Shown here: positions 33,320-64,000 of the stretch, one piece after another
How the letters are laid out: every line of letters begins with the position of its first letter
Position numbering within the stretch: position 1 is the first letter of the stretch
DNA from: Yuukianura sp. NJ FZ-2021
Lineage: Eukaryota
Direction of reading: 5' to 3'
Assembly: GCA_046563655.1 (NCBI GenBank)
Contig: CM102284.1
Coordinates: 1,054,001 to 1,118,000, forward strand
DNA: 64,000 nucleotides
Position numbers and translations under genes: made by a program
The notes under the pieces: model-generated
Seen by the model: only the letters and a program-made list of their open reading frames with translations
What the model was told of the DNA's origin: nothing
The model's database searches: none

Positions 33320-33666
33320 ATTAACATAACCTAATTTATTTTAAAATAAAAGCCTAACCTTTGTACATACATGTGCTTTCAAAAGTATTAAACCAGTCCA
33401 TTTCGCTTATGAAGATTCAAAAATTTATGTAAAAATGACGAAAAATAATTTTTCTTAAATTTCGCAACATCTCAACCTAAAGAGTATTGGATCTGTTTAT
33501 TTTCAACTACCAAGGTTAGGCCAAATTCAGACAAAAATTTCGACTTGCACTAAAATTTAGGGATCGGCAGTTTTGCAATCTAAAATATAAAATTTCGAAA
33601 TAACAGAAAGAATTTAAACAGAAAATTTGGACAAAAACTAAAATTTGATTACTTGTGAACAAAATC

Positions 33667-35109: not shown

Positions 35110-35343
35110 TTTAAACAGAGTTATGTTGTGCTAGAAGTAAACAATACCTCAATTGCTAAATTTTAAATTTCAGTAATTTATGAAGTTGCAAATGCTACTT
35201 TATACATTTACTTTGTCTGTCCGACCGACCGGCCGAGAGTTGCCGTATTAGTTTTTACATAATTGTGTATAAAAGATTCAACAGGATTGGGACACAGGAC
35301 GGCAACAGATATGGAAATACAATTTTTAAGTTTTCGAAATTAG

Positions 35344-35464
35344 TCTTGTCGCGTAATGCGATGGAAACTATGTGGATCCTACTATATTCAAAAAAAATAG
35401 TTTTCCGTCACTAGTCAAAAACCTTATCCTTAAAGCCCTCATTAAATTAATCATCACATTTTAG
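35344..35464 (+). pseudogene. Orphan C-terminal remnant of a sixth GR-like paralog
   Basis: Translates SCRVMRWKLCGSYYIQ / (A8 frameshift) NSFPSLVKNLILKALIKLIITF*; no upstream exons found. Confidence 0.8.
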
Positions 35465-36334
35465 TTAGCCTAACCCGGCTCATATCCGTATATTTCAAAA
35501 CCAATTTATTCGAGTTCTCCAATGAAACATGCAGCAGATATTCGTATATTTTGAGGAAAAATAGCAGTTTAATTAAATTAGCATCATCCGCAAAAGAATT
35601 TGAAAAAAAATGGTTTAGTTGACAAAATGCTGCCTTCGACGTAGATTAATTAAAGATGAATTCGGGAAAAATAATTAAAAATTCCCGCGGGTTATATGAT
35701 CCGAGCCATATATCTTGTTTTTGGTGAATAATAGGTGCAGATTAGTTAAAAACAAACTTCTTTTTTTCTTTTAAACATTCTACGCTTTTTGTAGAAAGTA
35801 TCTAAGCCAATTACAGTCTGCATGTATTCACTCAAATTGGAAAAACAATAGTTTTTAGCCTTTGTTTTTGTTGTGTATTGTTTAGGTAATACAAAATTTT
35901 AAGTTTCTTGCATGTTTTTTAATTAAAAAAAATCAATTTCTTTTTCATTTGTCAAAATTGTCAATTTACAATTTGGAATATTCTGTTGTTTAAAGCAGCA
36001 GGCGGAAATTTAGCATTTTCATGGACAGCTAGATCCACCCCATAAGTTAAATAATTTAATTAATCAATTAAGAAGATCCAATAATTGTGTACTAAATTTC
36101 TCAACCATTAGAATTATGTGTTCGGTTTTACTAAATTTCCGGCTTTTAAAAAAATGGCTTACGCCCATGCACTTTTCAAATTAAAAAATGTTAAATTTTT
36201 CTACGACGTTCAAAGATTTCAACAAATGGACTCTATTCAAAAGCTCTACGCTGGCAGTAGTGCTTGGAACTAAGCTTTGCTATGTTTCGAAAAATATTTT
36301 TTTTGAAAATCTGAAATTTCACAATCGCCTGGAC

Positions 36335-37929
36335 ATGATATCTACAGAGACGTATCGTCTAATGGTTATTGTTTGCAACACGCTCAGCTATCTGTTCCAG
36401 TGTCCAGTTGCTTTTGATGAACAAACGAAACAATTCATTTCATCAGAACAAAAATTCCGCAGCAAAATATACCGTGTTGGCTGGAAATACTCCAATTACT
36501 TGCTCCTTGTAACGGAATTCTGCACTGCCTCGGGTATACTGGCAGTATACATCTTTGGATGTCCACAAATTGAAGAGCGATTTTTCATTATTTTCTTGTG
36601 TTGCGTAATTGCACTATGTTCTTTGGTACACCACTTCTACCTAACAGAAGCAGAGGCCGTCGTTGTCGTCATGAATAAATTGTTTGGATTCAACGAACAA
36701 TTTCGTAAGAAACGTTCTTTCTGCTGTAACTTAGTCCATTTACTACTAACTAACCTTCCAATTGCTCCATCTTTCGGAAGTTTGTAGAATAGGGCCTGAT
36801 AACTCAAGGGTTAGAGTGCTTTCCGAATAGAAAAGATGTGGGTTCGAATCCCACGCAGTCCCTTATTTTTTTCTAGACTCTCGTTCTTTGTATCTCAAAC
36901 CATGTGATCCCTAAACGTCACAACAGGCAGACAAACAGACAGGCACGTTATTACCATACATTTTTTTATAGTAAGGATGTTACAATATATTATATGTTTT
37001 TAAACTGAAATCCAAAATATTTTTTCATTTTAGAGACAACATTCAACGAGGCTCCGGTTGAACACGATGGAAATGAAATCATCATGAAGTCCTCGTTCGC
37101 CATTGTCCTACTGTCACCACTTTATGAAGCTCCTGGAGCTTTTGTACTTCTAACGCAAGAGTGGGAAAGTATGAAACTGCTGAACACAATTTTGGAATTT
37201 TTGTCAATCCACATTTACTTCGGCGTACCATATGTCACTCTTGTGTGCACAATGCTTTGGTGTAACATTTTGGTATGCTTGGTCACAGTCATCATCATCC
37301 AGTCATCCATGAACCGATGTCTGAGTATGCGCAACAAGCAGTGAGACAATTTCCGCTAAATTTGAACACAAAATTGAGAAAAAAAATTGACTTATTTTTG
37401 AAATTTTCTCAAAAATCAAATGTATTACTTACTTTACTTGGATTCTTACCTATTTTTTGTTGGAAAATGGTGCAGAGTGAAATTTGAACGCCGCGGCCCC
37501 ACGTTGGAACGAAAGTCTGAGTTGCTCTACCGGAGTTTGCAACTGCTGCATGCAGAAGTTACCGATCTCGGCCGAATTGTGTGTCCTGGACTGGAATATA
37601 CTGCGGCAGTACTCCTTATTAGCCTTGGCTACGTTCTGCTCAAGGATGGACAATACATGAATTCCTACATCTTCGTTTGGTTTGGCTTAGTAGCTGTTGT
37701 TACGTTCGTCTTGTACGGTGCAATAATGGACCTCTTTTCGCAAATTGGCACAAATTCCCGAAAATTCCCGAAAGCGCACTATGGAGCTCTGAATTCACAG
37801 TTCCGACGGTCATGTCGTCCAATGCGTTGGAAAATGGGCGGATCCTACTACATCCAAAAATGCACTTTCCCATCACTCATCAAAAACGTAGTCCTAAAAG
37901 CACTCATAAAATTAATTATTACATTTTAA
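36335..37929 (+). CDS. GR/OR-like 7TM chemoreceptor, copy 5 (exons 36335-36704, 37034-37340, 37476-37929)
   Basis: Paralog with the same intron positions and C-terminal motif. Confidence 0.7.
36792..36862 (+). repeat. tRNA-like cloverleaf (pseudo-tRNA or SINE head) in intron 1 of GR-like copy 5
   Basis: Acceptor GGGCCTG/CAGTCCC (6/7 pairs), D-stem ACTC/GAGT, T-arm GTGGG-TTCGAAT-CCCAC, oligo-T downstream; anticodon arm irregular. Confidence 0.6.
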
Positions 37930-38405: not shown

Positions 38406-39675
38406 ATGACTTCGCTCTGGATAACCGCCTTGATGTTCGTTGTTATTGGCAAGTCAATTGGATTGTTACAAATTTATCAAAGTTCTTGTACTGTAATGTA
38501 ACTTGTTTTTTCAAGTTTGTGTAAATTTGTTGCTCAGATGCCGCTCCAAGGCCAGACTCAACAGCATTAACTGACGAGGATTTTGCAAATGGAAATTTGT
38601 TGCTACAACACGATTTCGGAGGAGATCGGCAGTATAATTTTTCCATGGAAGAAGCCCTTCACAGTGTACTATAAACATACTAACGTTGTCACTATTCAAT
38701 AAGGTTGCTATAACACCCATTTATATAAATGCGCCAACAGGTTGTGCCATAACACCGACTTTCTTTAAAAACACAAAAAAAACAGCAAATTTTTTTTCAA
38801 TTTTGTTGATTTTCACAACAACCATTTGAATTTTTTCTTTAATCATAGTTTTGATTTCGAATTTCTAACGCAACGGAGGAGCCGCGTGAGATGTGCGGTT
38901 CAGGTTCAATAATTTGAAAATTTGAAAAAATGAGATTTGATATAACCTGTTAAGAAAAAACAAACAAAATTTGGATTTAAACAAACCTTGCTATACACTA
39001 CATATTCAAAATACTATAATCGAAAAGTGTATATTGCAAAATATACCAACACCTTCTATGTTGTAGGCAGATGTAAGCAACGCTAATAGAAGGAGACGCT
39101 GGGGTACTGGCACAATTCCGTACGAAATCAGTTCTCTTTACAATTCAAACCAGCGTGCCGTTGTTGCCGGGGCAATTCAAGAATATTCCCGCCGTACATG
39201 TATAAAATTCGTTCCGCGGAAAAACGAGCGTGATTACATTCATATTACACCGGATGATGGACAGGGAAACAGAGTCAGTCCATACTGTTATTCATGGGTG
39301 GGAAAAATGGGCGGGAAACAATTTGTCAAAATGTATGGAGAGTGCGTTCGCCTTGCCGCTATGATACATGAACTGGGTCATGTGATTGGATTTGAACATG
39401 AACATAACCGTCCAGACAGAGACAACTACATCACTATTCTTTGGGACAACATTGATAGAACGTATCACTATGCTTACCAAAAAGTTAGCGCAAGTGAATA
39501 CGACACTTTAGGACTTCCTTACGACACGACCAGTACGATGCACTATCCTGATTACTCTTTTGCCAAGTCAGGAAAAAAGGCATTCCTGCTCAAATCAGGA
39601 AAACAATTGGATAGAGAAAATCAACGACTGTCTACAACTGACATTGCTAAAATCAAAAAGTACTACAACTGTTAA
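38406..39675 (+). CDS. Astacin (M12A) metalloprotease, copy 1 (exons 38406-38448, 38538-38665, 39067-39675)
   Basis: Signal-peptide exon, short propeptide, zinc motif HELGHVIGFEHEHNRPDRD, Met-turn STMHY. Confidence 0.9.
38700..38990. mobile_element. MITE, CAAGGTTG-TIR family, copy 3 (intron 2 of astacin 1)
   Basis: TAAGGTTGCTATA...AAACCTTG; flanks CTATTCAA/CTATACAC match at 6/8; absent from the paralogous intron of astacin 2. Confidence 0.7.
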
Positions 39676-40335
39676 ATTGTTTTTTTCCGAAAAATTTAAA
39701 ATACAAAATTTAAACCAAATTAAAAGAAAATTGCGGCTGATATGAAGAATTTAAAGAATGTTATACAGCGTGTCACACTTAAAACTGAACACCTTCAGCG
39801 TAAACAACTTATTTATTTTTTAAACCATGAGGAGATTTGTTAGCTAATTTCTGAATTATTGAAAACAGATCGTTTTTGCCAAGCGACAGAAAATTTGCAA
39901 AACAGAACAAGTATATAGTTGACGTGCTTATAGATTTTTTGAACGTAGATGAAAAAAAATTGAATAGTTTGGCTAGGAAATTTATTTTTCTAACTTGAAT
40001 ACTATGATTTTTAAACAAATGGTTTTTAGCCTGCTCATCTAAACTATATTTTTTAAAATATTCTTGATTGTAAAACACTTCATCGACTCACCGAAGCTTT
40101 ACAAGTCAAAAACTATTTTTTACATGAGCACGTCACTTTTTTTTAGACACAAACAGATTATACGAACATAGAGTGTTCGTATTGTTATGAAAATGATTGA
40201 CGTCCGTGTGCAGTTTTTTAATTCAGAAATTCAATATAAAAATGTTCCAATACAGTTTAAATGTGACTTCGCTAGCTTTTTAGTACTCCATTTGACCGAA
40301 TGTTTGCACTTGAATGTTGAACAAACTTAAAAATA

Positions 40336-41324
40336 ATGAATGTGCTTTGGATCTTCGCCGTGGTGTTCGTCGTCGCTGGCAAGTCAATTTGATTTTTTTT
40401 TTTGCTTTTTCAAAATTATCAAATATCAAAGTATAAATTTATCAAAGTTATATTATTTTATACAATTTTTTTTAACATTGTGTGAATTCGTCGCTCAGAT
40501 GCCGCTCCAAAACAAGCCACAACCGCCGCATTAACTGATGAGGACTTTGCAAATGGAAATTTCTTACTGGAAAATGATTTTGGAGGAGATCGGCAGTATA
40601 ATCATTCTATGGAAGAAGTCCTTCGCTTTGTAAAAACATACTAAAATTTCTATTACTTATTATTATATTATTATAATATATAATTTCATAAAATGTTTCA
40701 AAATTGCAGAGCGGCATTGGTATAAACAACGCCAACAGGAATAGACGCTGGGGTTATGCTACAATTCCGTACGAAATCAGTTCTCTCTACAATTCAAATG
40801 AGCGTGCCGTTGTTGCCGGGGCAATTCAAGAATACAATAGCCGTACTTGTGTCAAATTTGTTCCGCGGACAACCGAGCGTGATTACATTCACATTACACC
40901 GGATGATGGACAGGGTAACAGAGTCAGTCCATACTGTTACTCCTCAGTTGGCAGAATGGGCGGGAAACAGTTTGTCAAAATGTATGGAGAGTGCGTTCGC
41001 CTTGCTGCTATGATTCATGAATTGGGTCATGTCGTTGGATTTGAACATGAACATAACCGTCCAGACAGAGATAGCTACATCACTATACTTTGGGACAACA
41101 TTGACCCAACGTATCACTATGCTTACACAAAAACTACAGAATATGAGTACGACACTCTGGGACTTCCTTACGACATCTACAGTACGATGCACTATCCTGA
41201 TACATCTTTTGCCAAACCAGGAATGAAGGCATTCACACTCAACAATGGACAACCATTGTACTGGGAAAATCAACGACTGTCTACATACGACATTTATAAA
41301 ATCAAAAAGTACTACAACTGCTGA
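40336..41324 (+). CDS. Astacin (M12A) metalloprotease, copy 2 (exons 40336-40378, 40499-40629, 40710-41324)
   Basis: HELGHVVGFEHEHNRPDRD and STMHY; same exon structure as copy 1. Confidence 0.9.
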
Positions 41325-42584: not shown

Positions 42585-44865
42585 ATGCTCACACTACTGC
42601 TTTGTGCAATTGTCATTTTGGTTTGCCTGTTTTTCAATTGGTGGAACCCTAAAAACTTTCCGCCAGGTGAAGTTTTTCATTTTGAACCTTCTTACTCATT
42701 TTGATAGGAATTTTTGACTCTGACATCGCAATGTTGTAGGTTTACGTAAAATTTGTTGTTTGAATATTTTGAAAAAAAAACTATTTTCACAGGTCCAAAA
42801 AATTGGCTTGGGGTTGGAGTTGCGTTTGAAATTTGGAGAATAAATTTAACTTTTCCGTTTCTTGCGTTTATTGAACTCGGGAAAAAGTATGGTGACATCA
42901 TGTACGTTCCGTGGGGCGTCCATCACTCAAGTAATATTCTAAAACTTAATATCTCATTTATGAAAACCAGAAAAAAAGTTTTAAAATTTTGAAGCATCTT
43001 TTTTGAAGTTGTGATTAACAAGTACGAGGACATGAAGGAACTGCTAACAAAACACGAGTTCCATGCGCGCTACGAATTTGAGTACGTGGAGGAGCGAACG
43101 TTCGGAAAATGGATGGGTAAGCTCAGAAACTCTACAAAATTTGCAAAAAAAGGAAGAGTATTTATTCATTAAGTAGCGAAAGCTACTTTATGCATTGACC
43201 TTGTCTGTCTGTCTGTCTGTTTGTCTGTCCGTTTGCAAGTGCCACTTTCTCACAATTCGGGTTACAATCGTATTTAAATTTGTTTTACAGGAGTCCTGTT
43301 TAGTAGTAACAAGATATGGACCGACACTCGCCGTTTTTGTCAAAAGCAACTTTCAACCTTTGGATTTCGAAAATCCGAAACCCTTGGAAAAATACTTCGA
43401 CAGGAATTTCTGGATTTCGCAGCATCGCTGGAAAAATCTATAGAAAATGACTCCGGATTGGTTACAATTGACTTTACTTTTGACAAACCAGTCACAAATA
43501 TTTTGTGGAAACTTACATTTGGATTTGAGTCTAAAGAATGCTTGGAACGACTTCACATAGTCACAGATGCAAATGAACAACTATTGAAAATATTTACCTA
43601 CACAAATCTATTCCTTCCGTTCCCTTTTCTAATAAAGGCGCTTCCACGCCTATCCAACTATTACGCTTTAGCCAAAACGGCCAAAGACAATCAAGACATT
43701 TTTCAAGTAAGTCCTAAAATCACCTGCACAATTTGAAAAAAACAATCAGTTTTCTGAACATGTTTGCAAATACATGAATCCTATTTCGAAAGAAAAGTTT
43801 CCTACAAAAAGTATAATTAAATGAATTCATACAATATAATATAATAAAATATGTTATTAAAAATTAAATGAAATTTGTAGGAACTAGTTCAAGAATCTCG
43901 AAAAAGACAAAAAGCAGGAGAGGATCCATTTAACTTTGTTCAAGCTTTCACGAAAGAAATACAGCAAAATCAAAACACAGTTGGAACAAATTTCACAGGT
44001 ACGTTTAAAATATATATATACTATAATACAAGAATATTTATATATATACTTTTTGGCTAAAATCTAATTTTTAGAGGAGAACCTCATTGCCACCTTGTTG
44101 GATATTTTTTTGGCGGGAACAGAAACGTTGAGTAGATTTTTGGACTACTTAATTTTGTATTTGGTCATGCGAACGGACGTTCAAGACAAAATTTACGACG
44201 AAATTTGTTTGTTGTACCCTGATGGTGGAGTTCCTGCTTGGTCTGACACTGACAAGATGCCGTATACGCAGGCCGTAATTTTTGAAACTCTGCGCCTTGC
44301 AAATGTCGTTCCGATGCCAACTCCACGTCGAAACATTGTTGACTACGAGTACAAGGGATACACTTTTCCAAAAGTAAGATTACGATATTTCAAAAAAATC
44401 AAAAACTTTTCTGGAAAAGGCTATGAATTTTTTGAATTTAAGGGAGCATGTATTGCTTTCAACTTATTTGGTGTGCTAAGTGACCCTGTCTACTGGGGAA
44501 ACGATGTTGACAAATTTTGCCCCGAGCGATTCATTGACCCCCACACTGGAAAACTATTCAGAACAGAGCGTGTGGCGGCATTTGGATTCGGTAACTAAAA
44601 AACAAGAACCTAAATCAAAAATTTGAAAAAGTTAAGGTTTTGAAATTTTTTGCTTAATTTCGCCGCGTTTAACATTAAATTTTTAGGAAAAAGAATTTGT
44701 TTGGGAGAAGTTGTTGCAAAACAAGCCGCGTTTTTCTTCCTAACCGGATTGGTTCAAAAATTCAAAATTTCACAGCCGCCAAATTCCCGCCCTCTGGAAA
44801 ACAATTCTCTGCCGGGGTTTACATCCAGACCAAAACCGTTTCAGATTGTCGTTGCTAAGCGATAG
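42585..44865 (+). CDS. Cytochrome P450, probably CYP2 clan (CYP15/303/305-like), multi-exon
   Basis: N-terminal anchor plus 'NFPPGP'; I-helix 'DIFLAGTET'; K-helix 'ETLR'; 'PERF'; heme motif 'FGFG|KRICLG' split by an intron. Confidence 0.9.
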
Positions 44866-49667: not shown

Positions 49668-51667
49668 TCAGGATGCTTCTGCTTTCTGTCTCTGTAACTC
49701 TTTTATTTTTTCACATTGCTGAGCATGTCTCCTAAGTCGTGCTGGTTCACCACTGACGACCATTCCACAGCCTTTGCATAACATAGGAAGTCGCTTCACA
49801 CCAGGCTTGGGGTCACCTTCATAATATTATATTATATTATTATATTATATTATTTATTATATTATATTATTATGTTATTACCTTCTTTGTAATACCCCCA
49901 GATCCTGTCTCTGCCATATCTTCCGTTAGTGGATCGACGTGAAGAGGATTTGCTCTCTTCACTTGCAGTACGAGGTGACCTCCTACGCTTTGGTGTGTCC
50001 TCGTCTCCCGGCTGATATGACCCGTCACTGTCGTAATCCACTTTTACTTTTTTGGAAGTCGGCTCTTCGGAATGACGAACTCCTTCATCTCCCCAAAATT
50101 CCTCATCGCCACCAGTTGTTATCGTTACGACAGTTTCAGCCTTCCCTCCAACATCTTCTAAACATTGGCAAATTAATAGAAAAAAAAATTACAGTTAAAC
50201 AAAAACCAATTTAGGTCGATTTATCGCGATCAGTCTAAGTAAGACTTTATGATTACTCTGATAGCGTTTTTCCCTATAATTTTGCCAATTTTTCACGAAA
50301 TTTTAACAATTTTTCACGTTTTGTTTAAAAAAGATTGACCCCTGCTTTAAATAAGCGTTTAAAACAGCATGTTTAAAACGTCCGTTTAAAACAGGGATAC
50401 CCTGGGTCTAACCCGAACCTGATTCGGATTCCATGTCATCCTCGTCATCGCCCATTGCAGTATCCCCTATAACAATGATGTCGTTAGAATCGTTTGGAGT
50501 TGTAGGAGATGGACTTCCTGAAATTTTGAAATTCACACTTTTTAGAAATCTGCTAAGTGAAAGAAATTGGATTTGAAATTTGAAAATTGTTGGTCTGTGC
50601 CTACGTTCCAGTGAAATTCCGGCGGCCTTGAACTTTTTGACCCATGCTCGTACACTGCTTTCCGGAACGTTGAATTCTCTACCAGCTGGAGTAGGTCCGA
50701 TTTCAACAGCTCGTTTGCAAACCTGGTGAAATTTTCAAAAAATTTTGTCAATTGAAGCAAAGTGATAAAAGTGTCAATCGTTGATAAATCACGTTCGTGT
50801 TTAGTTCAAAGTCAAATTACCGTCAATCTAAACTTATCCTGTAGCACAGTTGGTTTACTACTAGTCCTCCAAGTCCTTGTACTTCCTGGCTCCCGATCTA
50901 AGGTTTTTCGGAAAAAATAGATAGTTGAATCAATTTGTTTCTTTAGGAAGTTTATGCATCGTCTAAAGATCATGCAAACAACATACCACTTGAACCTTGA
51001 GAGGGTTCCTTCTTAATCGCAACGACACGTTTAGCCTCGGTGCTGTTGGAGTTCGACCCATTGAGTCTTGCCTTGACACTCGCAGGACATGCTCGTGGCC
51101 GTGATCGAGGCGTCTCCTGCTTGATTACTTTCGGCTTGACATCGGGTACGTCTTGACTATCCTCTTCGTCGCTCCAGCTCAAATACCCTAGAAAAAACAA
51201 TGCTGATTTAGTTAACTATCACATGACCAATTGAACATTATAAACCTGATCTTGTTAACGGTTACCCTATACCTGTCGCATATGAACCAAAGTTGCTGTG
51301 ATCTTCACTGATATCCATATTCTCACTTTTTCTACTTTTCGACTTCGAACGTCCTCTGGTAGGTGATTTCTCAGCGTCTGAACGATGAGTTGCATAATTA
51401 AAGTCGAATTGAAACTGAAAGTAAACCTATGTAAGACAGGATACAAGACGTACGTGGATCATATCGGACCATTTTCCAGTAGCACTGATTGTCCAGTGCC
51501 TCCGATATCATTGTTTCGATCCTATTCCGATACTTCTCATCCGGTGAACGTTGATCCCGCATTTTTATTTTGATTAATCGAATTTCGTTTCTCAAAGATT
51601 CAACCTCCTCTTTCAACTCCATTACTTCGGATCTCAACGTCTCTACTACCACATCCGAATCCGCCAT
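49668..51667 (-). CDS. Locus A: putative transcription factor; common coiled-coil/QCYWK N-terminus with two 3' cassettes (Brinker-type HTH 50897-50408; BED-like finger 50157-49668)
   Basis: Common exons end at phase-1 donor 50987 and both cassettes open with phase-1 acceptors. HTH: 'KFRLT|VCKRAVEIGPTPAGREFNVPESSVRAW'. BED-like: 'IWGYY...CKGC...RLRRHAQQC'. Confidence 0.65.
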
Positions 51668-52712
51668 TGCTAATTATTTAGCTGTAGTTTCTTCTGCTTC
51701 AAATTTCAGCTGATCCAATTCAATTTGAAACCTGTTAACAAAATTAAAATTGATGACGAGTAGGAGACGTAATCCTTGCTATTGCTTTTAATGTGCTCAT
51801 GCCGAATACAAATCAGTAATTAAACTTTACTAAATTAAACTTACCAGTTGTAAAATTAACCAACAGTTTACAAAAATTAATACATACAAGAGGGAAAACA
51901 GGGAAGTAAAAAGCTGGCACCCAAACAACACCAATTTCAGACCAAACATGGTTAACATACAGAATAGTTTCAGCACTTGTAACCACATATGATGGCCACT
52001 TTAGCAAAAGTAATGCAGTGCTAGCAAGCATCAAGTGGTTATACATGCACATACAGCTACTGTTTTACACAAAAAATGTTAACGGAAACCGAAACTAACC
52101 AGGCAAATCGTTAAGCTAGGCAATGTAATCGTTGCAGTAATGTTTATTAACAATTCTGTGGTTACAAGCAGTTGATTTGATCCTAATTGCAACCTACATA
52201 ATGAAGGAGCGGAGGAATCACCAGAATCAGAGTATTAGTGACGCGTTCAACTGCGAATTAGGTTGACGTAAGGCTTTCAATCAGTCATGTACCCAACACA
52301 CTACCACTAATAGTTACTGCCTAGTTATGTGACACTGACAAATTTATCAATACTTGAACGAATTAATTATCTTTATAGCCAACTAATTATCTTTCCTTCG
52401 ATGATATGGAAATGTAACATCATCTTCCACCATCACGATGGTCGTCACTTGAAAAATCGCACGCTTGCGACTTGCGATTGCATCAGAAACTTGGAGGACC
52501 AGTTTGGCGCGAAAACTGTTTTGAATTCACGGGAAACACATTGAATTTGAAATTGAATGCATATTGTTGTTTGAACAGTCAGTTTATTCGGCAGATTGAT
52601 AATCGTGTTAAAATTCGAGATTTGACAAGTGATTAGTTGATTTTGAATTGGTTAGGAACTAATCAGTGAACTCCGTAAGATCATTCTTATTTGATTCATA
52701 AAGAAATCCAAC

Positions 52713-54083
52713 ATGCCGCTTTCGTGTCGGTACTACAAAGACCGGTATCCAGAAGTGGATGAAGTCGTCATGGTCAACGTTAAACGCATTGCAGAAATGG
52801 GGGCCTACGTCCATCTCCTGGAGTACAACAATATCGAAGGCATGATCCTCTTGTCCGAACTCTCCCGAAGACGTATTCGGAGTGTAAACAAATTGATTCG
52901 GATTGGGAAAACGGAGCCGGTAGTAGTCATCAGAGTGGACAAAGAGAAAGGTAGACGATGACACATTGATTGTTCCAAAAATCAAAAAACGTTTATAATT
53001 CAATTGCTTACGTTATCCAGGTTACATTGATCTTTCAAAACGTCGAGTTGCAGCGGAAGACATTGAGAAATGTAACGAGCAGTTTTCCAAGGCCAAGGCC
53101 GTCAATTCCATTCTTCGTCATGTGGCTGATCTCCTTGGTTATGACAGTGACGTCCAGTTGGAAGATTTGTACACCAAGACAGCATGGCACTTTGAAGAAA
53201 AGTATAAACGAAAGGCCTCTGCATATGATGCCTTCAAGCAGGCAGTTCAGTAGGTGCTATACCACTAACTATCGTTCTGGACAGAGATAGGTCCAGAGTT
53301 TTGAAAGTACCGCCAAGGAAACTTTTGAACTATAGGAGTTTCATTGGCGGTCTTTTCAAAACTCAGGAACTACTTGTGTGCTGATGGATACTTGTTCGTA
53401 TCCATTACCGTCAAAAATGAAAGCTATGTCAATTGAATTTCGATTTGTTTCATACAGAGATCCCACAGTTCTGGACGAGTGTAACTTGGATGAAGAGACA
53501 AAGACAACTTTGCTCAACAACATTCATCAAAAGCTGATGTTACAGTCAGTGAAGATTCGTGCGGATGTCGAAGTGAGTTGTTTTGCATACGAAGGGGTAG
53601 AAGCTGTCAAGAAAGCTCTGCGTGCTGGACTCGAGTGTTCCACTGAACAGATTCCAGTAAAAATCAATCTTATTGCTCCACCTTTATATGGTAAGAGGGA
53701 GGCAGAAGTTCCAAAATCATCAAAATTTTTGTCTTTCTACAATTCAGCATGATTATTCGTTTATCCTAACTTTTGAATTTCTAGTGGTTACTGCTTCCAC
53801 TCCAGAGAGACAAGAAGGGATTGAATTGGTTCAGCAAGCAATTGATCGAATTGAAAAGACGATCAAGAGCCTCGGTGGCAGTTTTAATGTCCAAATGGGT
53901 CCTAAAGTCGTCACTCAGATTGATGAGGACGAGCTAGTTCGGGCCATGGAGAGAGCACAACTTGAGAATCAGGAAGCTGATGGTGACGATGATGGAGATG
54001 ATGAAGATGCTGGCGGAGAAGAAGCAGAGAACAAGGAAAATAGCAAGGGTGGATCTGATGGAGAGGAAGACGGTGAAGATTGA
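52713..54083 (+). CDS. EIF2S1: Eukaryotic translation initiation factor 2 subunit alpha (exons 52713-52950, 53021-53249, 53458-53690, 53785-54083)
   Basis: '[20 protein letters not shown]' (Ser51 site), '[17 protein letters not shown]', 'INLIAPPLY', acidic tail. Confidence 0.98.
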
Positions 54084-54365
54084 AAAAAAAATCAAGAAAA
54101 AAATCAAGATTTCTTATGTCAACTCGTTTCTAAACATTTATTAATTCTGCTGGACTCTTAATTCTAATTCATTAGAATTAAAACCGTGGATTTGGTTCAA
54201 AACAGTTTGATTTTGCTCACTTTCCACATCTACATGAAACTAATCGACACGACGATAATCAATTAACTTCATTGTGACTTACCAGATAACATTTATGAGT
54301 ATAAAAATGAAAACAAAAATGAGTTCTTTTCTACAATATAACACTGTCTACGCCATGACGTGCAT

Positions 54366-57300
54366 TTAAAGATGAGGTGAGGAGGAGGATACGCTTGCGC
54401 CAAATATGGGTACAAACGATGCTTTTCCGGAGCGGAATGACCTTGAACTCTCTGTAAGCGAAAGTGAAAAAAAATCATTAATCGATTAATCTGCGGCCAC
54501 CTACCATGTCACGACCACCTACCATTTCACGACCACCGACCATTTCACGAATAATTCTAAGAAACTGGCACTTACATATAAATCTAACCTTCTTGGGCAT
54601 CCTCTTCTCTTGATGATTGAGACAAAGAGTTCATCCAAGATCGAACGGAAGCATTCGGATCCCGTAAATCAAACTGCGACTCTGAACAAAATTCTCTCGT
54701 TCCTTGATTAATCTAGGAAACAAAGTTTAAAATTCAAAAATAGTGCTAAAAGTTGTTAGCTCCCTTTCCCTCCCGGTTGTGAGAACAAACAAAATCGGAA
54801 TCAGAAATAGGCGGTATGCATTGAACTTTTGTGTGTACTCGTACCGTGTCCAACTCCACGGTGCCTTGACGTAGAGCATTGCCACTCGTCAGAACAGGAT
54901 CCAGAAACAGGAGTTCTTTGTAAAAGAGCCACTTTGAAGGTCGTCCGTTCCGGCCGGAGTTCGGGCGTTCCGTTTTCCGTTTCTCTGAACCGAAACAGAT
55001 TCGAATGACTCTCCAGCGGCTCCTTACGTCTTCACCTAGTTTCAAAAACTTCAAATTCAAAATTTCAGTTTTCAAAAAAGTATTTTTTGGTACCTTACGG
55101 TTAGTTCCTCCTAGGTTTTGCGCAATGACGTCCCATTCCATGTCCCTTAAGCCTTTCTTCGAGTAACTTTCATCTGCTGGATTCCACAGCATTGGTCGCT
55201 CTCGAACCATTCGAATCAGCTGCAGCTTTTTACGACGGTCCCAGTCCCCCTAGATTTCATCAAAAAGTTTTCCAAAAGTTTGAATACATAACCTAGCGCC
55301 AAGGTTGCAATAGCGCCCACTTATACAAATGCGGTAACAGGTTATGCCATAACTCCGATTAAAAAAAAACACGAAAAAACAACTTCTGGACCAATTTTAT
55401 TTTTACAAGGCAATTTGAAAAAAAAGAGTTATGGTACAACCTGTTAAGAAAAAAAACAATCAAATTTCGATTTAAACAACCTTGTCCTAGCGCCACCTTC
55501 AACTGAATATACAACGCAATTTTTCCGAACCAAGTTCAAAAAGTAATTGAAAGTGATTTTTTTTAATTCATCAAGTAAAATTTCATGAACATACATTAAA
55601 ATTTTGATTAATTTTTGATAAAACTACGATTATCCAGGAATGATTTCCGTTTGAGGCTACTTTAGCACAAATATTAAATCATTAAATCATAATTAAAATT
55701 ACTAAATTTTAACTATTTACTGTTGAAATTCATTGTCTGAATCGTGCAATGAGCGTGGAGAGTGGCTGGACACTGCAACATCGCCATCGTACGGCTCCTC
55801 AACAGTGTTGATATTCTCAGCATTTTCTCTTTTCATAAATCGTTCGCACCAACCTTTAGTTGGATTGAATCCTTGGATGTTTCTGGACTGCGCAATCAGT
55901 TCTGCCTGTAACCTTCAAAAATTTTTGGACACTTTCAAACTTCTCTTCATTTAAATTTTTAAATTTAAAATTTTTTTAATCATGTCTCATACCGAACTGC
56001 TTTTGTAGTAACGTCGACAAGCTTTGACCGATTGTCATCCAACCAGTGACGAAGTTCACATTCCAGTTCTGGAAACTTGGCAGCTTTTCCGCCGCGAAGA
56101 GAGCGTCTGTCAGCATTCAGTTTCAAAAGTATTGGCAGCATTTTTCTCCAACTACGAATGGACGCCTCACACACTCCAAATTCAGTTCCTGCTTTTCTGT
56201 TTCCAATTTGCTCAGCCCTTTCACAAACCTAAATCAAGTTTCTCAAAAAATTAGTCACCTTATCAAAAAATATTAAGGTCTAGATAAAATTTTGAATTTG
56301 AAAGTTCATAAATCGTACCTGGATTTTGAAACTAGCTGGATACGACTTCCGACATTTCTGTCCAGCATCCTTATCCATTTCACTCAAATCCTGAATTGAA
56401 CAAGGCAATCAGAGAAGTGTGTCGGACTAATAACGTGCGCGTGCGTTAATCTTTTTAAACGTTTTTAAATTCAAGTTTTCTCTTATGAACATTGAAAAAA
56501 CTGCGCTGTATATTCAGCAAGCTGCGGTGTGACATCGATTTCCGACCAGCAGTATGTGTATGCACAGCAAAATGCTGTCCGGGCTCAGCTTTAAAAATTA
56601 AAAACAAAGTTGCTCTTTACCTTGGATTCCGACCCACGAACTCGAGTTCCATCTAAAAATTTGAAAAAAAAATTGAAGACCCATTTTTTTTTTGAAAATT
56701 TTTAAGCAAAGAAAATCTGCTAACACATACCTTCTTCGTCGGTTCCGTATTCATCTCTTTCGTTCTTTTGAACTGACTCGCAGCTACCGTGCGGAGTTCC
56801 AGAAGCTTTGCCCTGCACGTTGTCTTTCCCTTGGGAACTTCCAGTATTTCCAAAATCTTTACGCATGACCTAAAAATTTATACTAGAATTTAGCATATCA
56901 TATTTATTACATATTATTATATTAACTTAACTATACTTCGGATAAGCGTTTTTAATTGCTATTGTTAAAAAGACCGGTTTGTATCAACTTACAACGACTT
57001 TTGGTTCGGTATTTTTCAGAGGTGGTTTGGACCCCGTAGCTTTGAATTTTCTAGAAACGTTGAGTTGATTAGCGGGGAACTTCTGGGGACCTTCAAAAGA
57101 AAAAAATGAAATTAAAAAAAAAAATTGAAACATTGAAATTATTTCCATAACTTATGGGAGACCAGGGGTAGTAATTTTTTCGTCACCATTTGTATTTTTG
57201 TTAGTGGACTGAGCTCCATGAAGGATTCGGTACGATTGAGTATCTTTTCGAGCCGGTCCATTAGCATTAGAATGTTGGTTTCTAGGGATTTCATCATCGT

Positions 57301-57938
57301 CGTCGGTATCGATACGACGATCTACAAAACATAAGAAACAAAAACTCAGCATGCGCGACAAACGTATTATTACTGACTAAGAGAATTACTGAAAGTATTA
57401 CAATCTACTGAAGCTTCGCTATCGCTGGAATTCTTCTTGTAGTTTTTTCGTTTCAGCGCTTGCGAGCTGTCCGAACTTCTCTTTCTCTTTGCAGTTTCAC
57501 CAGAAGCACCTGAATTGAAAGCAAAACGTTTAGGTAATGGACAGACAACTCAGAAAAAACGGAAAACGTACGATGGTCAAATCGGATTGTCTTCCAGTAA
57601 CATTGGCTGTCCAGTGTCTCCGTCACAATTTTCTCAATCACGTCTCTGTACTTGTCCGGATTTGGTTCAATGTCTCGTACTTTTCTCTTGACCAACCGTA
57701 ACTCGGATCGGAGTGACACAACTTCAGATTCCAAGTCCCTCAGTCGTCTCTTCATTCTTTTCATCTCCATCTCAAATATCTTAGGGATACTGCTGGAGTC
57801 TTGTTCAAACAGTTCTTCCTCCTGTTGCGATGAGTCTGACATAAAACCTTCTTGGACATAGACACTTCCAGTATCATTTAACCCTTCCATCACGCACTCG
57901 AGCGATTCCAACTTGATTTCGTCGCTATTCTCTTCCAT
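54366..57938 (-). CDS. Locus B: paralog of locus A; common N-terminus with two 3' cassettes (Brinker HTH + CENP-B-type HTH 56390-55717; MADF 55249-~54366)
   Basis: N-terminal 'LESEVVSLRSELRLVK...LDSQCYWKTIRFDH'. Common exon ends at phase-0 donor 56621 and both cassettes open in phase 0. Cassette 1: 'RKSYPASFKIQ|VCERAEQIGNRKAGTEFGVCEASIRSW...FPELECELRHW...GWCERF'. Cassette 2 (MADF): 'LIRMVRERPMLWNP...W..IA...RW...KWLFYKELLFL'. Confidence 0.65.
54500..54551. repeat. Short tandem repeat (~19-bp unit, ACCATTTCACGACC...) x3, intronic
   Basis: CCTACCATGTCACGACC / CCTACCATTTCACGACC / CCGACCATTTCACGA. Confidence 0.7.
55300..55484. mobile_element. MITE, CAAGGTTG-TIR family, copy 4
   Basis: Perfect 8-bp TIR CAAGGTTG/CAACCTTG; flanks ACCTAGCGC/TCCTAGCGC duplicated. 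Confidence 0.75.
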
Positions 57939-58536
57939 CCGATGTTAAATTAAGCAGATCTATATTAGAAAAGAAATAAAAATCAGAACCATAAATGGGA
58001 AGCAGATGCTGTGTAGTACCACAAAATAGCAAACAATTCCTTCCAGAATAAGAGACCAGACAGAACCAAATATCTTCATTATTACCTGAATTTCCATTGA
58101 CTAACATGTATTTTTACTAAATTTAAAACTGCACCTACCGTTCCATCCAATTTCAATACAACAGGCATTGGCGAGGTTTAGGAGCCTAGGAGGTACTACC
58201 TTAGTTATGAATATGATATTAGCGCAACGTAATTTATTACCTTTGAATTTTATCAAACCGAGGTCAATGTGCTGTGAAAGGACGCATACAGAAAGGAGGG
58301 TCACGCGGTTAGTTCACTGTAACGTCAATCGTGAGGACGGTCTTCCACGTCCACCAACCAGTACATTTTCGTTCAGAAAACGTTTTGTCCCCTACGATCA
58401 TAACGGGCAACCTACGTTTGCAACTCGTTCACGATAAATTAACAACCAGGCAGGTTATTGATACACTGGTAATTTCTTCAAATGCCCGTACATAAAAAAA
58501 CTATGAGGGGAGATCGACTGCTTTTCAATACGATTT

Positions 58537-59822
58537 TATGGGGCTTTAATAACGACACCATTGGAAATATTTTTATTTTTAAAAACTTCGTAAATTACGA
58601 GGTCGAAAAGTTCCAACCTCGCAAATTACGAAGTTGAAAATTTCCAACCTTGTAAATTACGGAGTTGGAAATTTCCAACCTTGTAAATTACGGAGTTGGA
58701 AATTTCCAACCTTGTAAGTTGCGGAGTTGAAAAAGTTCGGAGTCGGAAAGTGGTGGCCCTTTTACGGAGTCGAGAAAATTCACGAGGTTGGAAAATGCAC
58801 TTTACTTGCCTCCTAATTCCGTGGGAAGAAATAGCTCAGAAGAAGACTAGCCCCCGTCCATTGTTGCCACTACGTGTTATAGCATAGGAATACTAAACAA
58901 AGGGATGAGTTTTGCCAAATTTGCATACATCGATACTATACTGTGGAAACGTTTGGTTGAGGTGAACCGGAATTCCATCCGATGTAACCACAGAAACAAT
59001 TCCTCCGTTATGTTACTACAGTTTGTGCTGAGTTGTGCACAATAACCAACAAGAAACTCCGTTGAAGTAAGCTTGGGCTACCAGACTGTACCCACCAGTT
59101 CAAAATTATGCGCACTGTCATTGTACCCACTCATAGGATAAGAACAATTGTACCCACCAACATCGTAAGCATTACATACACCTAGCGGCAATAGATTAAC
59201 CTCTGAACTAAAGTTGGCCACCTTTTGGTGATTAAATTGTCAGCGCGCATAATTTTGAACTGGTGGGTACAGTTTGGCAGCCCAAGCTTACTTCAACGGA
59301 GTTTCTTGTTGGTTATTGTGCACAACTCAGCACAAACTGTAGTAACATAACGGAGGAATTGTTTCTGTGGTTACATCGGATGGAATTCCGGTTCACCTCA
59401 ACCAAACGTTTCCACAGTATAGTATCGATGTATGCAAATTTGGCAAAACTCATCCCTTTGTTTAGTATTCCTATGCTATAACACGTAGTGGCAACAATGG
59501 ACGGGGGCTAGTCTTCTTCTGAGCTATTTCTCCCCACGGAATTAGGAGGCAAGTAAAGTGCATTTTCCAACCTCGTGAATTTTCTCGACTCCGTAAAAGG
59601 GCCACCACTTTCCGACTCCGGAACTTTTTCAACTCCGCAACTTACAAGGTTGGAAATTTCCAACTCCGTAATTTACAAGGTTGGAAATTTTCAACTTCGT
59701 AATTTGCGAGGTTGGAACTTTTCGACCTCGTAATTTACGGGGTTGGAAATTTTCAACCCCGTAATTTACGAAGTTTTTAAAAATAAAAATATTTTCAATA
59801 CTGTCGTTGTTAAAGCCCCATA
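58537..59822. mobile_element. Inner foldback element: ~575-bp near-perfect inverted arms (58537-59113 / 59245-59822) inserted into the left TIR of the outer element
   Basis: Arms are reverse complements along their length; TATGGGGC...GCCCCATA termini; flanks CGATTT/CGCTTT; 31-bp subterminal units containing the palindrome GTTGGAAATTTCCAAC. Confidence 0.9.
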
Positions 59823-60306
59823 CGCTTTGCTGCAAGATTTTTTTAAAAAACACAAGAAAAAATTCCTTGCAGAAAATAGGGACGAACATTTTCTGCAAGC
59901 TTTTTTCTTGCAGAGAACGGAAGCGTTGTTATAAGAAGTTTGCGCAAAATCGAGCCGTTGTTATAAGAAACATGCGGAAAATCCAGATGTTGTTATAAAA
60001 AGCTTGCGGAAAATCGATGCGTTGTTATAAAAATATTGCGGAAAATCGAGACGTTGTTATAAGAAACATGCGAAAAATTTGAGGAATTGGAATTTTGAAA
60101 AATTCAGCTGAAATTCAAGTTTTGGATGTATTTGCCTTGCCGAGGATTCACGCGTACTCTACCGTCTTGAAATGTTGGTCTCGTGAAAAATTGACCTGTT
60201 CTCTAACTTTTTGACGTGGCCAAATTTTTAAAAATTCACTTGTACACTTACTTTTTGAGGATTTGGAATTTTGAAAAATTCAGCTGAAATTCAACTTTTG
60301 GATATA

Positions 60307-60540
60307 CAGTCGAGTTTCCCTTTTATTCCATTTGCCAAATACAAAACAAAATACAATTGAGAAGTACAAAACTCGCACCCGTACATTGGCGGTGAACTGG
60401 CAAAATGAAACGCCAAATGGCAAATTGGGGAATTGCCAATGACAATTTGACTTCAGACTCATGTAATTTTCTAACCCCAGTGTAGTCCAATTGCAATTTG
60501 TTTTGTATTTGGCAAATGGAATAAAAGGGAAACTCGACTG
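60307..60540. mobile_element. Tc1/mariner/pogo-type MITE, 234 bp, TA TSD
   Basis: ~44-bp perfect TIR CAGTCGAGTTTCCCTTTTATTCCATTTGCCAAATACAAAACAAA; TA on both sides; an empty-site copy with a single TA lies at ~60129. Confidence 0.92.
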
Positions 60541-61764
60541 TATTTGCCTTGCCGAGGATTCACGCGTACTTTACCGTATTGAAATGTTGGTCTCGTGAAA
60601 AATTGACCTGTTCTCTAACTTTTTGACGTGACAAAATTTTTTGACAAAATATAACTTTTACGTTTACTTTTCGAGGAATTCTAACTTGGGAAAATTCAGC
60701 TGTCGTAAAATCTTAAAAGTGACTTATAATTTATAACAACGTCTCGATTCTCCGCAAGTTTCCTATAACAGCGGCTCGATTCTTCGCAAGCTTTTTATAA
60801 CCTCGGCTCGATTCTCCGCAAGCTTCTTATAACAGCGCTTCGATTCTTCGCAAGCTTTTTATAACAGCTCCTCGATTTTCCGCAAGCTTCTTATAACAAC
60901 GTCTCGATTTCTGCAAGAAAAAAACTTGCAGAAAATGTTCGTTTTGATTTTCTGCAAGGAAATTTAATTGTGTTTTTTAAAAAAAGCTTGCAGCAAATCG
61001 CGTTGAAAAGCAGCCGATCTCCCCTCATAAAAAACCGATTAAATTTTAACTTGAAAAAACACAAGCAACGTAGACTTTCCCTTCCTCTCTCTCAAATGCT
61101 CAAAGTGGGATCTGACTAATCCTCTGAATTGTCGTTTCCCGCTTCCATAAAATTCCTAATGGACCTAGCACAGCATCGCAAAGTTTTGAGATTATTATTA
61201 TTATATTAACATAATTAACATAATAATGATAATGGAATATTATATGAATTATTAATCAGAAATGTCTCTAACCTGGGCCTTTACCGAAGTTTGGGCTGCG
61301 TATTATACAAGCTGTAAGCAAGGAAATACGGTAATTCCAAATTCAAAAAACCTTCGACCTACAGACCTTACAAGAGACAAGATAAACTATTTATTAAGGC
61401 TATTTATTAAGATTATTTATTAAATTCTGTCTAACAACGTCAAAAAGCATATAAGAGATACGCTTTTGCTACTTTTAGTTACTTACTTAACCGTAACTGG
61501 TAGAGTTTAGTAAAGCCTTCGCCAAGTATAAAAATTTTGGTTCCACGCAGCTCCGTGTGAAACGTTCTTCTGAAAGGCTCGCAGCCAATTTAAGTCATGT
61601 TCTCCAGACTCCGCAAGCAGAAGCATTACAGAGATCCGGAGCTGAGGGTGACCAAAAAGAAATGTACAGATCATTCCAGGCAGCAGTTGATTGGAACACA
61701 CAAGTTCAAAAACGGTGGGTCATGTTCAGATTCCTTTCATTTTCATCAAATGCTGTCCAATAAG

Positions 61765-63923
61765 CTAACTTCCTGGAGATGAAGGTGACGGAGACAAAGT
61801 GTTGTCACCAAACATCGGTTCGAAAGTTTCTTGCTCTACGCTACCGGAATCTATGCATTTTAAAAGTGATTAAAATGACTCCAATTACTTGAATTAAGTA
61901 AATGTTTACAGAAATTGATCAAGTTAACTCCCTACCTGGTTCCAATTTTGGTAAAAACCTCAACCAATGGCGAATGCTCCCTTCCGGTATGTTTAACTCT
62001 CGACCAGCCGCTGTCGGACCCACTTCCCTTGCACGTTGACATGCCTAAGCACACAGAATTACTTTTACTTGGTCAAATCGTAACCCTGATGTGTTTGGAC
62101 ATCGGGCTTTACAGAAGACGGGATAATCCTAAGAATATGTTAACATCATACCTGCATTTTCACTTCTGGAGTGGATTCATATTGTTTGTATTTTCGTTTT
62201 GTCGATTTGGGACTTGGAGTACCAGCAAAAGATTTATCTGGAACAGCACAAATCAACTCGTTAGGTTCAATTCGCAAGAGTAACAACATTCCATATGCAA
62301 AATAACGCTCACTTGGGCTAACACGAGTGACTCCAACTTGGACATGTTCGGATTTCTGATAGCTCTCAACCACACTCTCAAAATCAGGATCTGTTGATTA
62401 ATTTCAAAGAAAGTGTGAATTAGTTCTAATTTTTTTTAGTAAATGGAACTGAAACAGTTTGGACATAGACTTTCACGGCGTTTCGCCTCTGCCGAAACCA
62501 ACTCCGCTAAATTTTCTGAGTTTGAGTCGGAGCCGGATCGCCATTTTTGTGTAAGAAAAATCTGTTTGTCCTGTCGCTTAAATTTATTTAATGCAATGAA
62601 AGTAATTTGAAAACAAGTTTTAATAACTAAAAGTGTAACATTACTGAGAAAATGTTAGTAGAAAATATCCACTGTATAATTTAGAACTCGCTTAACCCCG
62701 AAGCTTTTTTTTCAACTAACGTTATTTGTTTGAACTGTCCGACGTTGCACTACTTGGTTTTATAATAGTTTATCAGCAACCAAGAATGTCTTGCTTTCAA
62801 GTGCCGTCCCAAATTAGAAGTAGATCCATCCTTCTTTCTTTTAATTCTGGAACTGCATAGAATAATGAAATGAACCAAATTAGAAGGATGTTGACATTTC
62901 AGCGAAAAAAAATTAAATACTTACCGGCAGTACTTGCATTGGTACAGCTCCTTTTCATTTATGTAAACGAAATGTGAAATGAAGATTGATTTTGCCGTTA
63001 CCCTCAATGTACTAGTATGTTCTTTCGTAGAAACTGGCACTTCCGAATCCGATGAACTAGCCTCATCCTCACTAGTGGCAATTACTTGAACGTTGTTTTC
63101 TGATGCCATTACATTAAATTATGTCACAAGCAAACACAATTCGAGTTAAAATGAAAAAGTGATAATTAGGGTCTTTAAGCTCTTTTACACTTTAAAGAGT
63201 CAATTTTAAAGAGTCAGAGCCGGAAACGGAATCAAAGGAGCTGGTGAGGCGAGAGCCGTGAAAGTCTAGTTTGGAGATAAAAGTGAGCAGTTTACAAACT
63301 GCTGACTTTGACTTGTCAGTCTTGGCGTGTTAGCACGGCGAGAATGACTACTAAACTTACCATCAATTTCTGGCGATTCAAACTCGATTCCGTTCTCCAC
63401 TAATCTTCTTGTCCAACCTCGGACGGTACTTTCTGGAAGATTGAATTCTCGTCCAGCAGCAGTCGGCCCAATTTTCTTGGCTCGGCGACAAACCTTATAG
63501 AAAACAAAAGTCAAAGATCAACGTAGTGACCACTGCTCGACTTCAAAGTTAGCAGGAAGTTCGGTGCTGCTTATTTTACCTGCTTTTTATATTCCAAATC
63601 TGTAGGCCTTCCTTTCCGGCCGAAAGAGTTTACAGCTAAACAAGTTAAAAACTTTAGAATTCAATCAAACCAGTTTGGGTTTTAAAACAGTCATGGCAAA
63701 ACTGTTTTTCCACAAGCGCAAGTGGGAACCTTACCTCTTTGTACTTTAACGTCCTGTTTATCCGCTACGTCAGCGCTACGTTTTGACTGTCCAGGCTTCG
63801 ATGGTTTGCGTGTCAAGTCATCTTTCTCCCGTTTAACAAGAAAGGAAATTCGGGAAGATGGAGAGCGAGATTTTTTAAGAGAAGTTAATCCATCACCGTT
63901 GTTCCTGACCACCGTCGCGAGAT
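61765..63923 (-). CDS. Locus C (5' end outside window): upstream exon 63923-63735 followed by three 3' cassettes (HTH 63635-63266; BED 63099-62750; HTH 62390-61765)
   Basis: Phase-1 donor at 63735; all three cassettes have phase-1 acceptors and their own stops. 'EYKKQ|VCRRAKKIGPTAAGREFNLPESTVRGW'; 'YQCKYCR|SRIKRKKDGSTSNLGRHLKARH'; 'EVKMQ|ACQRAREVGPTAAGRELNIPEGSIRHW'. Confidence 0.65.
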
Positions 63924-64000
63924 CTGCGGCCATAACCAATATTTTAAGTAACGATAAGTATACTTACTTAAAATATGTAATTTCACCACATGTTTGAAAT

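Follow-up and report, generated by a model that had tools for sequence, protein, structure and literature searches.

Three predicted lola-like loci without a detected BTB domain in Yuukianura sp.: shared 5′ exons followed by putative alternative DNA-binding ends

Three minus-strand loci, named A, B and C, lie within positions 49668-63933 of the window (the whole stretch of DNA analyzed, i.e. 64,000 nt of Yuukianura sp. NJ FZ-2021, GCA_046563655.1, CM102284.1:1,054,001-1,118,000, to which all coordinates refer). Their sequence leads us to lean towards lola-type loci devoid of BTB, in which shared 5′ exons would be joined to alternative stop-terminated and putatively DNA-binding ends. Loci A and B appear to be paralogous arthropod transcription-factor genes, and C is probably a further paralogue. 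In the proposed mechanism, a few constitutive 5′ exons would encode a two-helix coiled-coil domain at the N-terminus and, after it, a linker rich in Ser, Lys and Asp. From the last donor of these exons, splicing would lead either to the nearest cassette (intron of 89-230 nt) or past it to a more distal one (635-1371 nt). Each cassette is modelled as a self-contained 3′ module of two or three exons, rather than one, terminated by a stop of its own, so that a locus would produce two or three proteins with an identical front half and a differing nucleic-acid-binding end: (i) psq/Brinker-type HTH, (ii) HTH plus Tc5-type HTH, (iii) MADF, (iv) BED or (v) CCHC finger. The modelled features are as follows:

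51667-51454 (ATG, coiled-coil domain), 51377-51273 and 51187-50987, minus strand: common exons of locus A (open spliced model, last donor in phase 1)
50897-50821, 50722-50605 and 50517-50408 (stop TAG), minus strand: cassette A1, psq/Brinker-like HTH (spliced model)
50157-49882 and 49816-49668 (stop TGA), minus strand: cassette A2, Cx2Cx13Hx3C ββα zinc finger (spliced model)
57938-57572 (ATG, coiled-coil domain), 57509-57390 and 57321-57187, minus strand: common exons 1-3 of locus B (spliced model)
57090-56993, 56869-56731 and 56652-56621, minus strand: common exons 4-6 of locus B (spliced model, last donor in phase 0)
56390-56319, 56228-55993 and 55912-55717 (stop TAA), minus strand: cassette B1, psq/Brinker-like HTH and Tc5/CENP-B-type second HTH
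55249-55099 and 55035-54746 (stop), minus strand: cassette B2, MADF (Pfam and spliced model)
63933-63735, minus strand: upstream exon of locus C, the sole one in the window (spliced model, donor in phase 1)
63635-63580, 63493-63361 and tail 63265-63191 (stop), minus strand: cassette C1, HTH (spliced model)
63099-62925 and 62852-62750 (stop TAG), minus strand: cassette C2, probable BED finger (spliced model)
62390-62152, 62044-61936 and tail 61850-61764 (stop TAG at 61768-61766, slightly short of the end given), minus strand: cassette C3, HTH

All loci were modelled by coordinate-based splicing in scripts. The spliced models confirm the three common donors of the original prediction, which end at 50987 (A, phase 1), 56621 (B, phase 0) and 63735 (C, phase 1). 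The predicted phase agreement also stands: starting at acceptors 50897 and 50157 (A), 56390 and 55249 (B), and 63635, 63099 and 62390 (C), seven of the seven cassettes have an open frame once joined to the donor of their own locus and end in their own stop. The naive probability of such an agreement by chance is (1/3)^7, but the paralogy of A1, C1 and C3 makes the true figure weaker. Loci A and B show several upstream exons before their cassettes; locus C shows a single one within the window, which starts either by an ATG at 63933 or after an AG acceptor located before 63923.

By contrast with the prediction that each cassette encodes a different module, four of the seven (A1, B1, C1 and C3) carry the same type of HTH. 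These four cassettes are homologous and keep a phase-0 intron before an invariant C-x-R-A stretch. Their 5′ acceptors are in phase 1 in A1, C1 and C3 and in phase 0 in B1, i.e. always in the phase of the donor of their own locus, and this covariation is the strongest internal evidence for the proposed organization. Pairwise comparisons of HTH exon 2 give pS values of 0.72-0.89 (saturated) compared to pN values of 0.22-0.45, all copies being intact. Judging from these alignments, the four HTH exons, which share a conserved intron position, are old constrained paralogues rather than recent insertions. A transposon origin of part of the domains, as proposed initially, is conjectural. A similarity comparison found no further copies in the window. 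Against solved structures, the HTH profile matched 2elh_A best (E = 0.19), and single-exon HTH queries gave zero and two weak hits.

Domain assignments were made by scoring single exons with Pfam, so that domains split by an intron were counted as halves. The MADF identity of B2 agrees with the original prediction, the match to MADF_DNA_bdg (PF10545) covering the whole profile (positions 1-84 of 84; 4.4e-17, 62.7 bits compared to a cut-off of 22); B2 may include another exon near 54722. For B1, which had been proposed to combine Brinker and CENP-B HTHs, the second domain was retrieved as HTH_Tnp_Tc5 (22.9 bits, above the cut-off of 22.2), the only transposase-type Pfam match among the cassettes, whereas the BrkDBD match of a half-domain exon (14.9 bits) is below its cut-off of 23.4. 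Locus A had been described as encoding an HTH or a BED-like domain. The HTH holds for A1, with two sub-threshold matches (HTH_28, 23.8 bits for a cut-off of 25; CENP-B_N, 14 bits), but A2 belongs to no Pfam family and neither of its exons gives a zf-BED hit at E values up to 10. Its AF2 model instead adopts a ββα fold (pLDDT 82.9) corresponding to a Cx2C…Hx3C finger, for which Foldseek retrieved only weak hits to UBZ/C2H2-type fingers (E above 1). In locus C, both HTHs of the predicted series HTH, BED, HTH are paralogues of that of B1, with sub-threshold matches for C1 (HTH_28, 20.9 bits) and C3 (BrkDBD, 11.7 bits). C2 is only probably a BED: its second exon alone nearly reaches the zf-BED (PF02892) cut-off (20.2 bits compared to 20.6, profile positions 21-44 of 44) and the Pfam scan found no zf-BED match in its first exon. 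We infer that these putative ends bind DNA.

The first exons of loci A and B share a coiled-coil domain of ~60 aa (46% identity, E = 2e-17) that belongs to no Pfam family, both exons giving only weak coiled-coil hits. The AF2 model of the N-terminal part of B includes helices at residues 53-90 and 95-120. Comparisons with solved structures retrieved generic coiled coils (GCN4, Max; E of 0.0087 or more), Foldseek gave three hits, all with E above 4, and all scores of an atlas search were 0.80 or less. This domain may self-associate; predicting a complex of B residues 48-122 with a second copy yielded a score of 0.11 and a mark of 0.32, values that decide in neither direction. Pfam detected no BTB in A exon 1, A exon 3, B exon 1 or the C exon, A exon 3 and the C exon giving no hit at all, and the remaining common exons encode 10-46 aa each and are therefore too short to hold a BTB (~100 aa). 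The non-BTB N-terminus proposed initially is thus corroborated across the scanned common exons. The upstream exon of locus C has no Pfam match and resembles none of the A or B common exons, and the N-terminal domain was not found for this locus within the window; any coiled-coil exon of locus C would be located past base 64000.

A search for the N-terminal domain yielded five matches among 1.84 billion representatives. One of them, P0005 (370 aa in one continuous frame), carries this domain and a C-terminal C2H2 pair (PF13465), and therefore the N-terminal domain travels with varied nucleic-acid-binding ends. A scan of metagenomes returned two loci. One, L001, belongs to another organism and includes common-type exons only; it has the same N-terminal domain, which stops at an identical donor position in phase 1. 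The other, L002, was rejected, its match being an unrelated coiled coil within a long ORF that looks prokaryotic. On the basis of sequence, we regard the N-terminal exon as a genuine and conserved part of these genes. Among longer proteins, no match was found with the N-terminal exon of B, nor with a five-sequence profile among 8000 scored candidates. Residues 60-320 of P0005 matched only P0005 itself, no sister isoform being seen; the scan of viral contigs gave no relative among 376 pattern matches and the protein cluster look-up gave no names.

Splice signals were scored with a weight matrix trained on 18 introns of these very models and are therefore partly circular. Within the short interval without stops that precedes the domain, the claimed AG of six of the seven cassettes either outscores every other AG or is alone in having a positive score. 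Acceptor scores range from 0.4 to 6.3 for cassettes compared to 5.7-14.4 for the compared internal introns, the weakest being those of C2 (0.6) and C3 (0.4). Although the anatomy, phases and stops fit the predicted alternative last exons on shared 5′ exons, splicing from an HTH to the next cassette would also stay in frame in loci A and C, since the HTH exon-2 donors 50605 (A1), 63361 (C1) and 61936 (C3) are in phase 1 too. Serial or mixed splicing, in which these HTH exons would be internal and joined to the next cassette from their exon-2 donor or from a GT preceding the A1 stop, is in our opinion unlikely. Its main products would be two-module proteins (an HTH with a zinc finger, or two HTHs in tandem), the tail exons providing minor ends. 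The frame is open when the common exons are joined to C1 exons 1-2 and C2. It is also open for the common exons, A1 and A2 joined through donor 50413, i.e. the serial join near 50412 already considered in the original prediction. Two GTs of compatible phase shortly precede the stop of the A1 tail exon (50419, score 5.6; 50413, score 2.2), and the 250 nt between this stop and the A2 acceptor contain no canonical poly(A) hexamer. However, both GTs have a T at intron position +3, which is found in none of the 18 modelled donors, and the acidic/Ser-rich tail exon, with its stop, is intact in all of A1, C1 and C3 (for C1, intron retention also gives a stop, at 63266). Furthermore, the phase-compatible GTs of the B1 terminal exon all have negative scores (-2.5, -4.7 and -3.2) and the C2 terminal exon has none, so that B2 and C3 cannot follow B1 and C2 serially; C2 and C3 would thus be mutually exclusive even with serial splicing. 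Taken together, we lean towards the predicted junctions being used and the cassettes being chosen alternatively rather than serially.

The start codons bear on a second alternative, in which B1 and C2 would be separate genes, possibly domesticated transposase or BED fragments, nested inside the last intron of a host gene with a single 3′ end (B2 or C3). Both have their own in-frame ATG, at 56378 (B1) and 63109 (C2), in a fair context (G at +4) and at or just before the proposed acceptor. Furthermore, the 230 nt between the common donor and B1 exceed all 18 modelled introns (62-123 nt), and the C2 acceptor is weak. Nevertheless, we consider nested genes quite improbable: the B1 acceptor shares phase 0 with the B donor, unlike its HTH paralogues, the C2 ATG is in the frame of the phase-1 acceptor, and the pairs A1/A2 and C1/C3 would be left unexplained, as they are devoid of usable ATGs. 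A2 and C1 have no in-frame ATG within the open stretch or first exon, and B2 is directly preceded by a stop, its first ATG (codon 14) falling inside the MADF match, which begins at residue 11; therefore, these three cassettes must join upstream coding exons. Own ATGs, which the original prediction had regarded as a sign of separate genes, are thus present in B1 and C2 but absent from A2 and C1, and lie inside the MADF domain in B2. Lastly, it is very unlikely that some cassettes are unused relics of duplications or transposon insertions, with one protein per locus: the weak acceptors of C2 and C3 would fit this idea, but the 17 cassette exons are all open and in phase, the HTH exons combine saturated synonymous change with conserved residues and the MADF match reaches 62.7 bits.

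The favored organization, alternative ends on shared 5′ exons, recalls the Drosophila Tramtrack-group BTB genes, which include lola, mod(mdg4), broad, fruitless and tramtrack. As in lola and mod(mdg4), constant 5′ exons encoding a putative interaction domain are followed by an array of predicted alternative 3′ modules, all seven of which fit the phase of the last constant donor of their locus and have their own stops. Unlike these loci, which carry about 20-30 cassettes with one domain type per locus, those described here have two or three cassettes each, mix HTH, MADF, BED and CCHC across one small gene family and show, in the scanned common exons, no BTB match but a ~60-aa two-helix coiled coil outside Pfam families. 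According to PMC11426971, the isoforms of many TTK-type BTB factors vary in the DNA-binding domain that they carry, and those of lola and mod(mdg4) are formed by trans-splicing. Alternative DNA-binding 3′ modules are an arthropod feature, and the genes adjacent to the three loci also point to an arthropod. Host-transposase fusions, in which host regulatory-domain exons are alternatively spliced to a transposase-type DNA-binding domain, are described in tetrapods, mostly with KRAB, by Cosby et al. (bioRxiv 10.1101/2020.05.07.082677). B1 resembles them by its pair of psq-like HTH and HTH_Tnp_Tc5 and by its own ATG adjoining the acceptor, whereas the HTH exons found here are old paralogues with a common intron position. 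Our search of the open-access literature found no paper on a non-BTB analogue of lola-type loci, which is a weak negative.

Tentatively, these loci may represent a second BTB-independent lola-like system of arthropods, combining a new coiled-coil domain with at least five classes of ends through 3′ cassettes: psq-type HTH, HTH plus Tc5, MADF, BED or CCHC, and C2H2 (in relatives). Since donors and acceptors of loci A and C share phase 1, trans-splicing could also swap cassettes between these two loci, in the manner of mod(mdg4). Should the junctions be used, the diversification of DNA-binding isoforms by 3′ modules would not be tied to TTK-type BTB, and this strategy would have emerged a second time, on a different N-terminal scaffold, offering a natural comparison for what a scaffold must provide (oligomerization or the recruitment of cofactors, for instance). 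These loci would then also establish an arthropod family of transcription-factor domains that is new and missing from Pfam, and possibly an invertebrate example of DNA-binding-domain capture via splicing.

Downstream of the cassettes, no canonical poly(A) hexamer was found within 400 nt after A1 or B2, and the remaining cassettes are followed by such hexamers no more densely than the background (1.7 per kb); C3 is followed by three AATAAA hexamers 343-369 nt downstream. Overall, this signal was not discriminating. The Rfam scan gave a tRNA as its sole match.

The layout of three minus-strand loci (A, B and C) gives a slightly better than even chance that each joins an invariant front half to one of several alternative ends. 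Their exons were rebuilt by coordinates on the minus strand and the joins were translated by script, starting from the following upstream exons.

51667-51454, 51377-51273 and 51187-50987, minus strand: three common exons of locus A, last donor in phase 1
57938-57572 through 56652-56621, minus strand: six common exons of locus B, last donor in phase 0
63933-63735, minus strand: single upstream exon of locus C within the window, donor in phase 1

Seven exon groups of two to three exons each (cassettes A1 and A2, B1 and B2, C1, C2 and C3) lie 3′ of these exons. As the original prediction had claimed, the cassettes are phase-matched to the donor and have their own stops: all seven gave an open frame ending in a stop when spliced to the donor of their own locus in the scripted translation. 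The modelled introns are 62-123 nt long; the first cassette lies 89 nt (A), 230 nt (B) or 99 nt (C) from the common donor, and the distal cassettes 635-1371 nt from it. Neither the cassettes nor the N-terminal domain have additional copies elsewhere in the window. A possible further B2 exon was observed at 54600-54850 on the minus strand (GT donor near 54850, AG acceptor near 54722), whose in-frame stretch of ~42 aa would substitute for the read-through tail of B2; an 18-nt unit is repeated three times in tandem at 54494-54547 (83-89% identity).

Cassettes A2 and C1 both lack an in-frame ATG, and B2 has a stop directly upstream and its first ATG inside the MADF match. These three cassettes cannot stand alone and therefore must receive upstream coding exons, for which the phase-matched common donor would be the obvious source. 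Furthermore, no GT of compatible phase in the terminal exon of B1 or C2 scores above zero; therefore, if all cassettes are expressed, B1 and B2 would exclude each other as ends, as would C2 and C3. Each locus would thus join a constant front half to alternative stop-terminated 3′ modules, as described for arthropod TTK-BTB genes in PMC11426971.

All AGs within the short stop-free stretch preceding each cassette were scored with a weight matrix that is partly circular, being built from the 18 internal introns of these same models; in 6/7 cassettes, the proposed acceptor was the top or sole positive-scoring candidate. In A1, the open stretch extends back into the common exon, hence other candidate AGs. 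The naive probability of seven phase matches is (1/3)^7, a count that includes fewer than seven independent matches because A1, C1 and C3 are paralogues. The covariation of acceptor and donor phases among homologous HTH cassettes is, in our reading, a better argument than this raw chance count: A1, B1, C1 and C3 are homologous (exon 2 is 39-44% identical to that of B1, with ten invariant positions) and have in common a phase-0 intron directly before exon 2, and their 5′ acceptor phase (1 in A1, C1 and C3; 0 in B1) equals that of the local common donor in every case.

Some features would also suit other routes. The exon-2 donors of the HTH cassettes A1, C1 and C3 are also in phase 1, so that joins from an HTH cassette to the next one likewise read through. 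The original prediction had named serial splicing through a GT near the A1 stop as a refutation; two phase-compatible GTs do occur in the A1 tail exon shortly before the stop, which weakens the reading as alternative ends. B1 and C2 could be nested genes, since their own ATGs lie at or beside the proposed acceptors; these ATGs could instead be the trace of a once-independent ORF that was captured, by analogy with transposase capture as treated in 10.1101/2020.05.07.082677. Poly(A) hexamers at the cassette ends are not above background. Recent insertion or decay of the HTH cassettes is ruled out by saturated synonymous versus lower non-synonymous differences among the four copies of exon 2 (pS 0.72-0.89; non-synonymous 0.22-0.45). 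Together with the N-terminal domains (A versus B: pS 0.77, pN 0.32), these cassettes are, judging from such differences, old duplicates under amino-acid constraint.

Among the modules proposed for the cassettes, MADF was recovered by Pfam for B2 (4.4e-17), and the last exon of B1 passes HTH_Tnp_Tc5 (22.9 for a cut-off of 22.2). Sub-threshold rows were obtained for the B1 middle exon (BrkDBD) and for A1 and C1 (HTH_28 and CENP-B_N), a weak BrkDBD row for C3, and C2 exon 2 alone aligns to the second half of zf-BED with a score of 20.2 (cut-off 20.6). The "BED-like" label of A2 was not confirmed: its sole basis is the Cx2C…Hx3C spacing, and A2 has no Pfam family match. Its last exon was modelled as a ββα finger (pLDDT 82.9) with only weak UBZ/C2H2-type rows in Foldseek.

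The first exons of loci A and B carry a common domain that aligns over 63 aa (46% identity, E 2e-17) and is modelled by AlphaFold as two helices (B residues 53-90 and 95-120), with a block-mean pLDDT of 83-95 in the first helix and of 71-82 in most of the second. It gave only sub-threshold coiled-coil rows in Pfam and only GCN4- or Max-like coiled-coil rows (E ≥0.0087) in a profile search of solved structures. Among 1.84 billion representative proteins, only five matched at E ≤0.001. P0001, encoded on a contig from another organism (L001), has the domain, which ends at a phase-1 donor positioned as in loci A and B, and P0005 (370 aa, one continuous frame, another organism) has it N-terminal, followed by a basic linker and a C-terminal C2H2 pair (PF13465); P0002, one of the five, is an unrelated repeat protein. 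Membership of locus C in this family cannot be demonstrated since its sole upstream exon has no similarity to the common exons of A or B.

Loci A-C would work in the same way as lola and mod(mdg4). However, they fail the defining BTB test and are therefore not members of that family; they also differ in having an N-terminal scaffold in no Pfam family and few cassettes per locus, and in mixing unrelated domain classes in one small paralogous family. No published non-BTB analogue was found in the open-access literature searched.

The region is eukaryotic and AT-rich (~36-40% GC), with these neighbouring features.

52695-54083, plus strand: eIF2-alpha gene (S1 9.2e-18, EIF_2_alpha 1.7e-26), between loci A and B on the opposite strand
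58537-59822 and 59839-61000: two foldback-like elements that fill the space separating locus B from locus C
4854-16268, 26687-37929, 39067-41324 and 43278-44598, plus strand: tandem gene arrays
36779-36862, plus strand: tRNA-Ser (anticodon AGA), between two tandem membrane-protein paralogues

The eIF2-alpha gene and locus A may share a divergent promoter region because the 5′ end of the former and the start codon of the latter lie ~1 kb apart. A ~25-nt motif recurs in two to three near-copies directly 3′ of the A1 stop, at 50343-50394, where no canonical poly(A) hexamer is present; it may serve in termination or regulation, or have arisen by chance. The foldback-like elements have long inverted arms (408 nt at 96% and 202 nt at 92%; ~155 nt at 80%) composed of tandem 31-32-nt subrepeats. 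A neighbouring intronless ORF groups with ionotropic receptors of arthropods (atlas score 0.97). The tandem arrays include three long intronless ORFs of ionotropic-receptor type (arthropod clusters, likewise 0.97), five paralogues that resemble membrane proteins, have several exons and match nothing in Pfam, two astacins (1.5e-51) and one P450 (3.5e-29).
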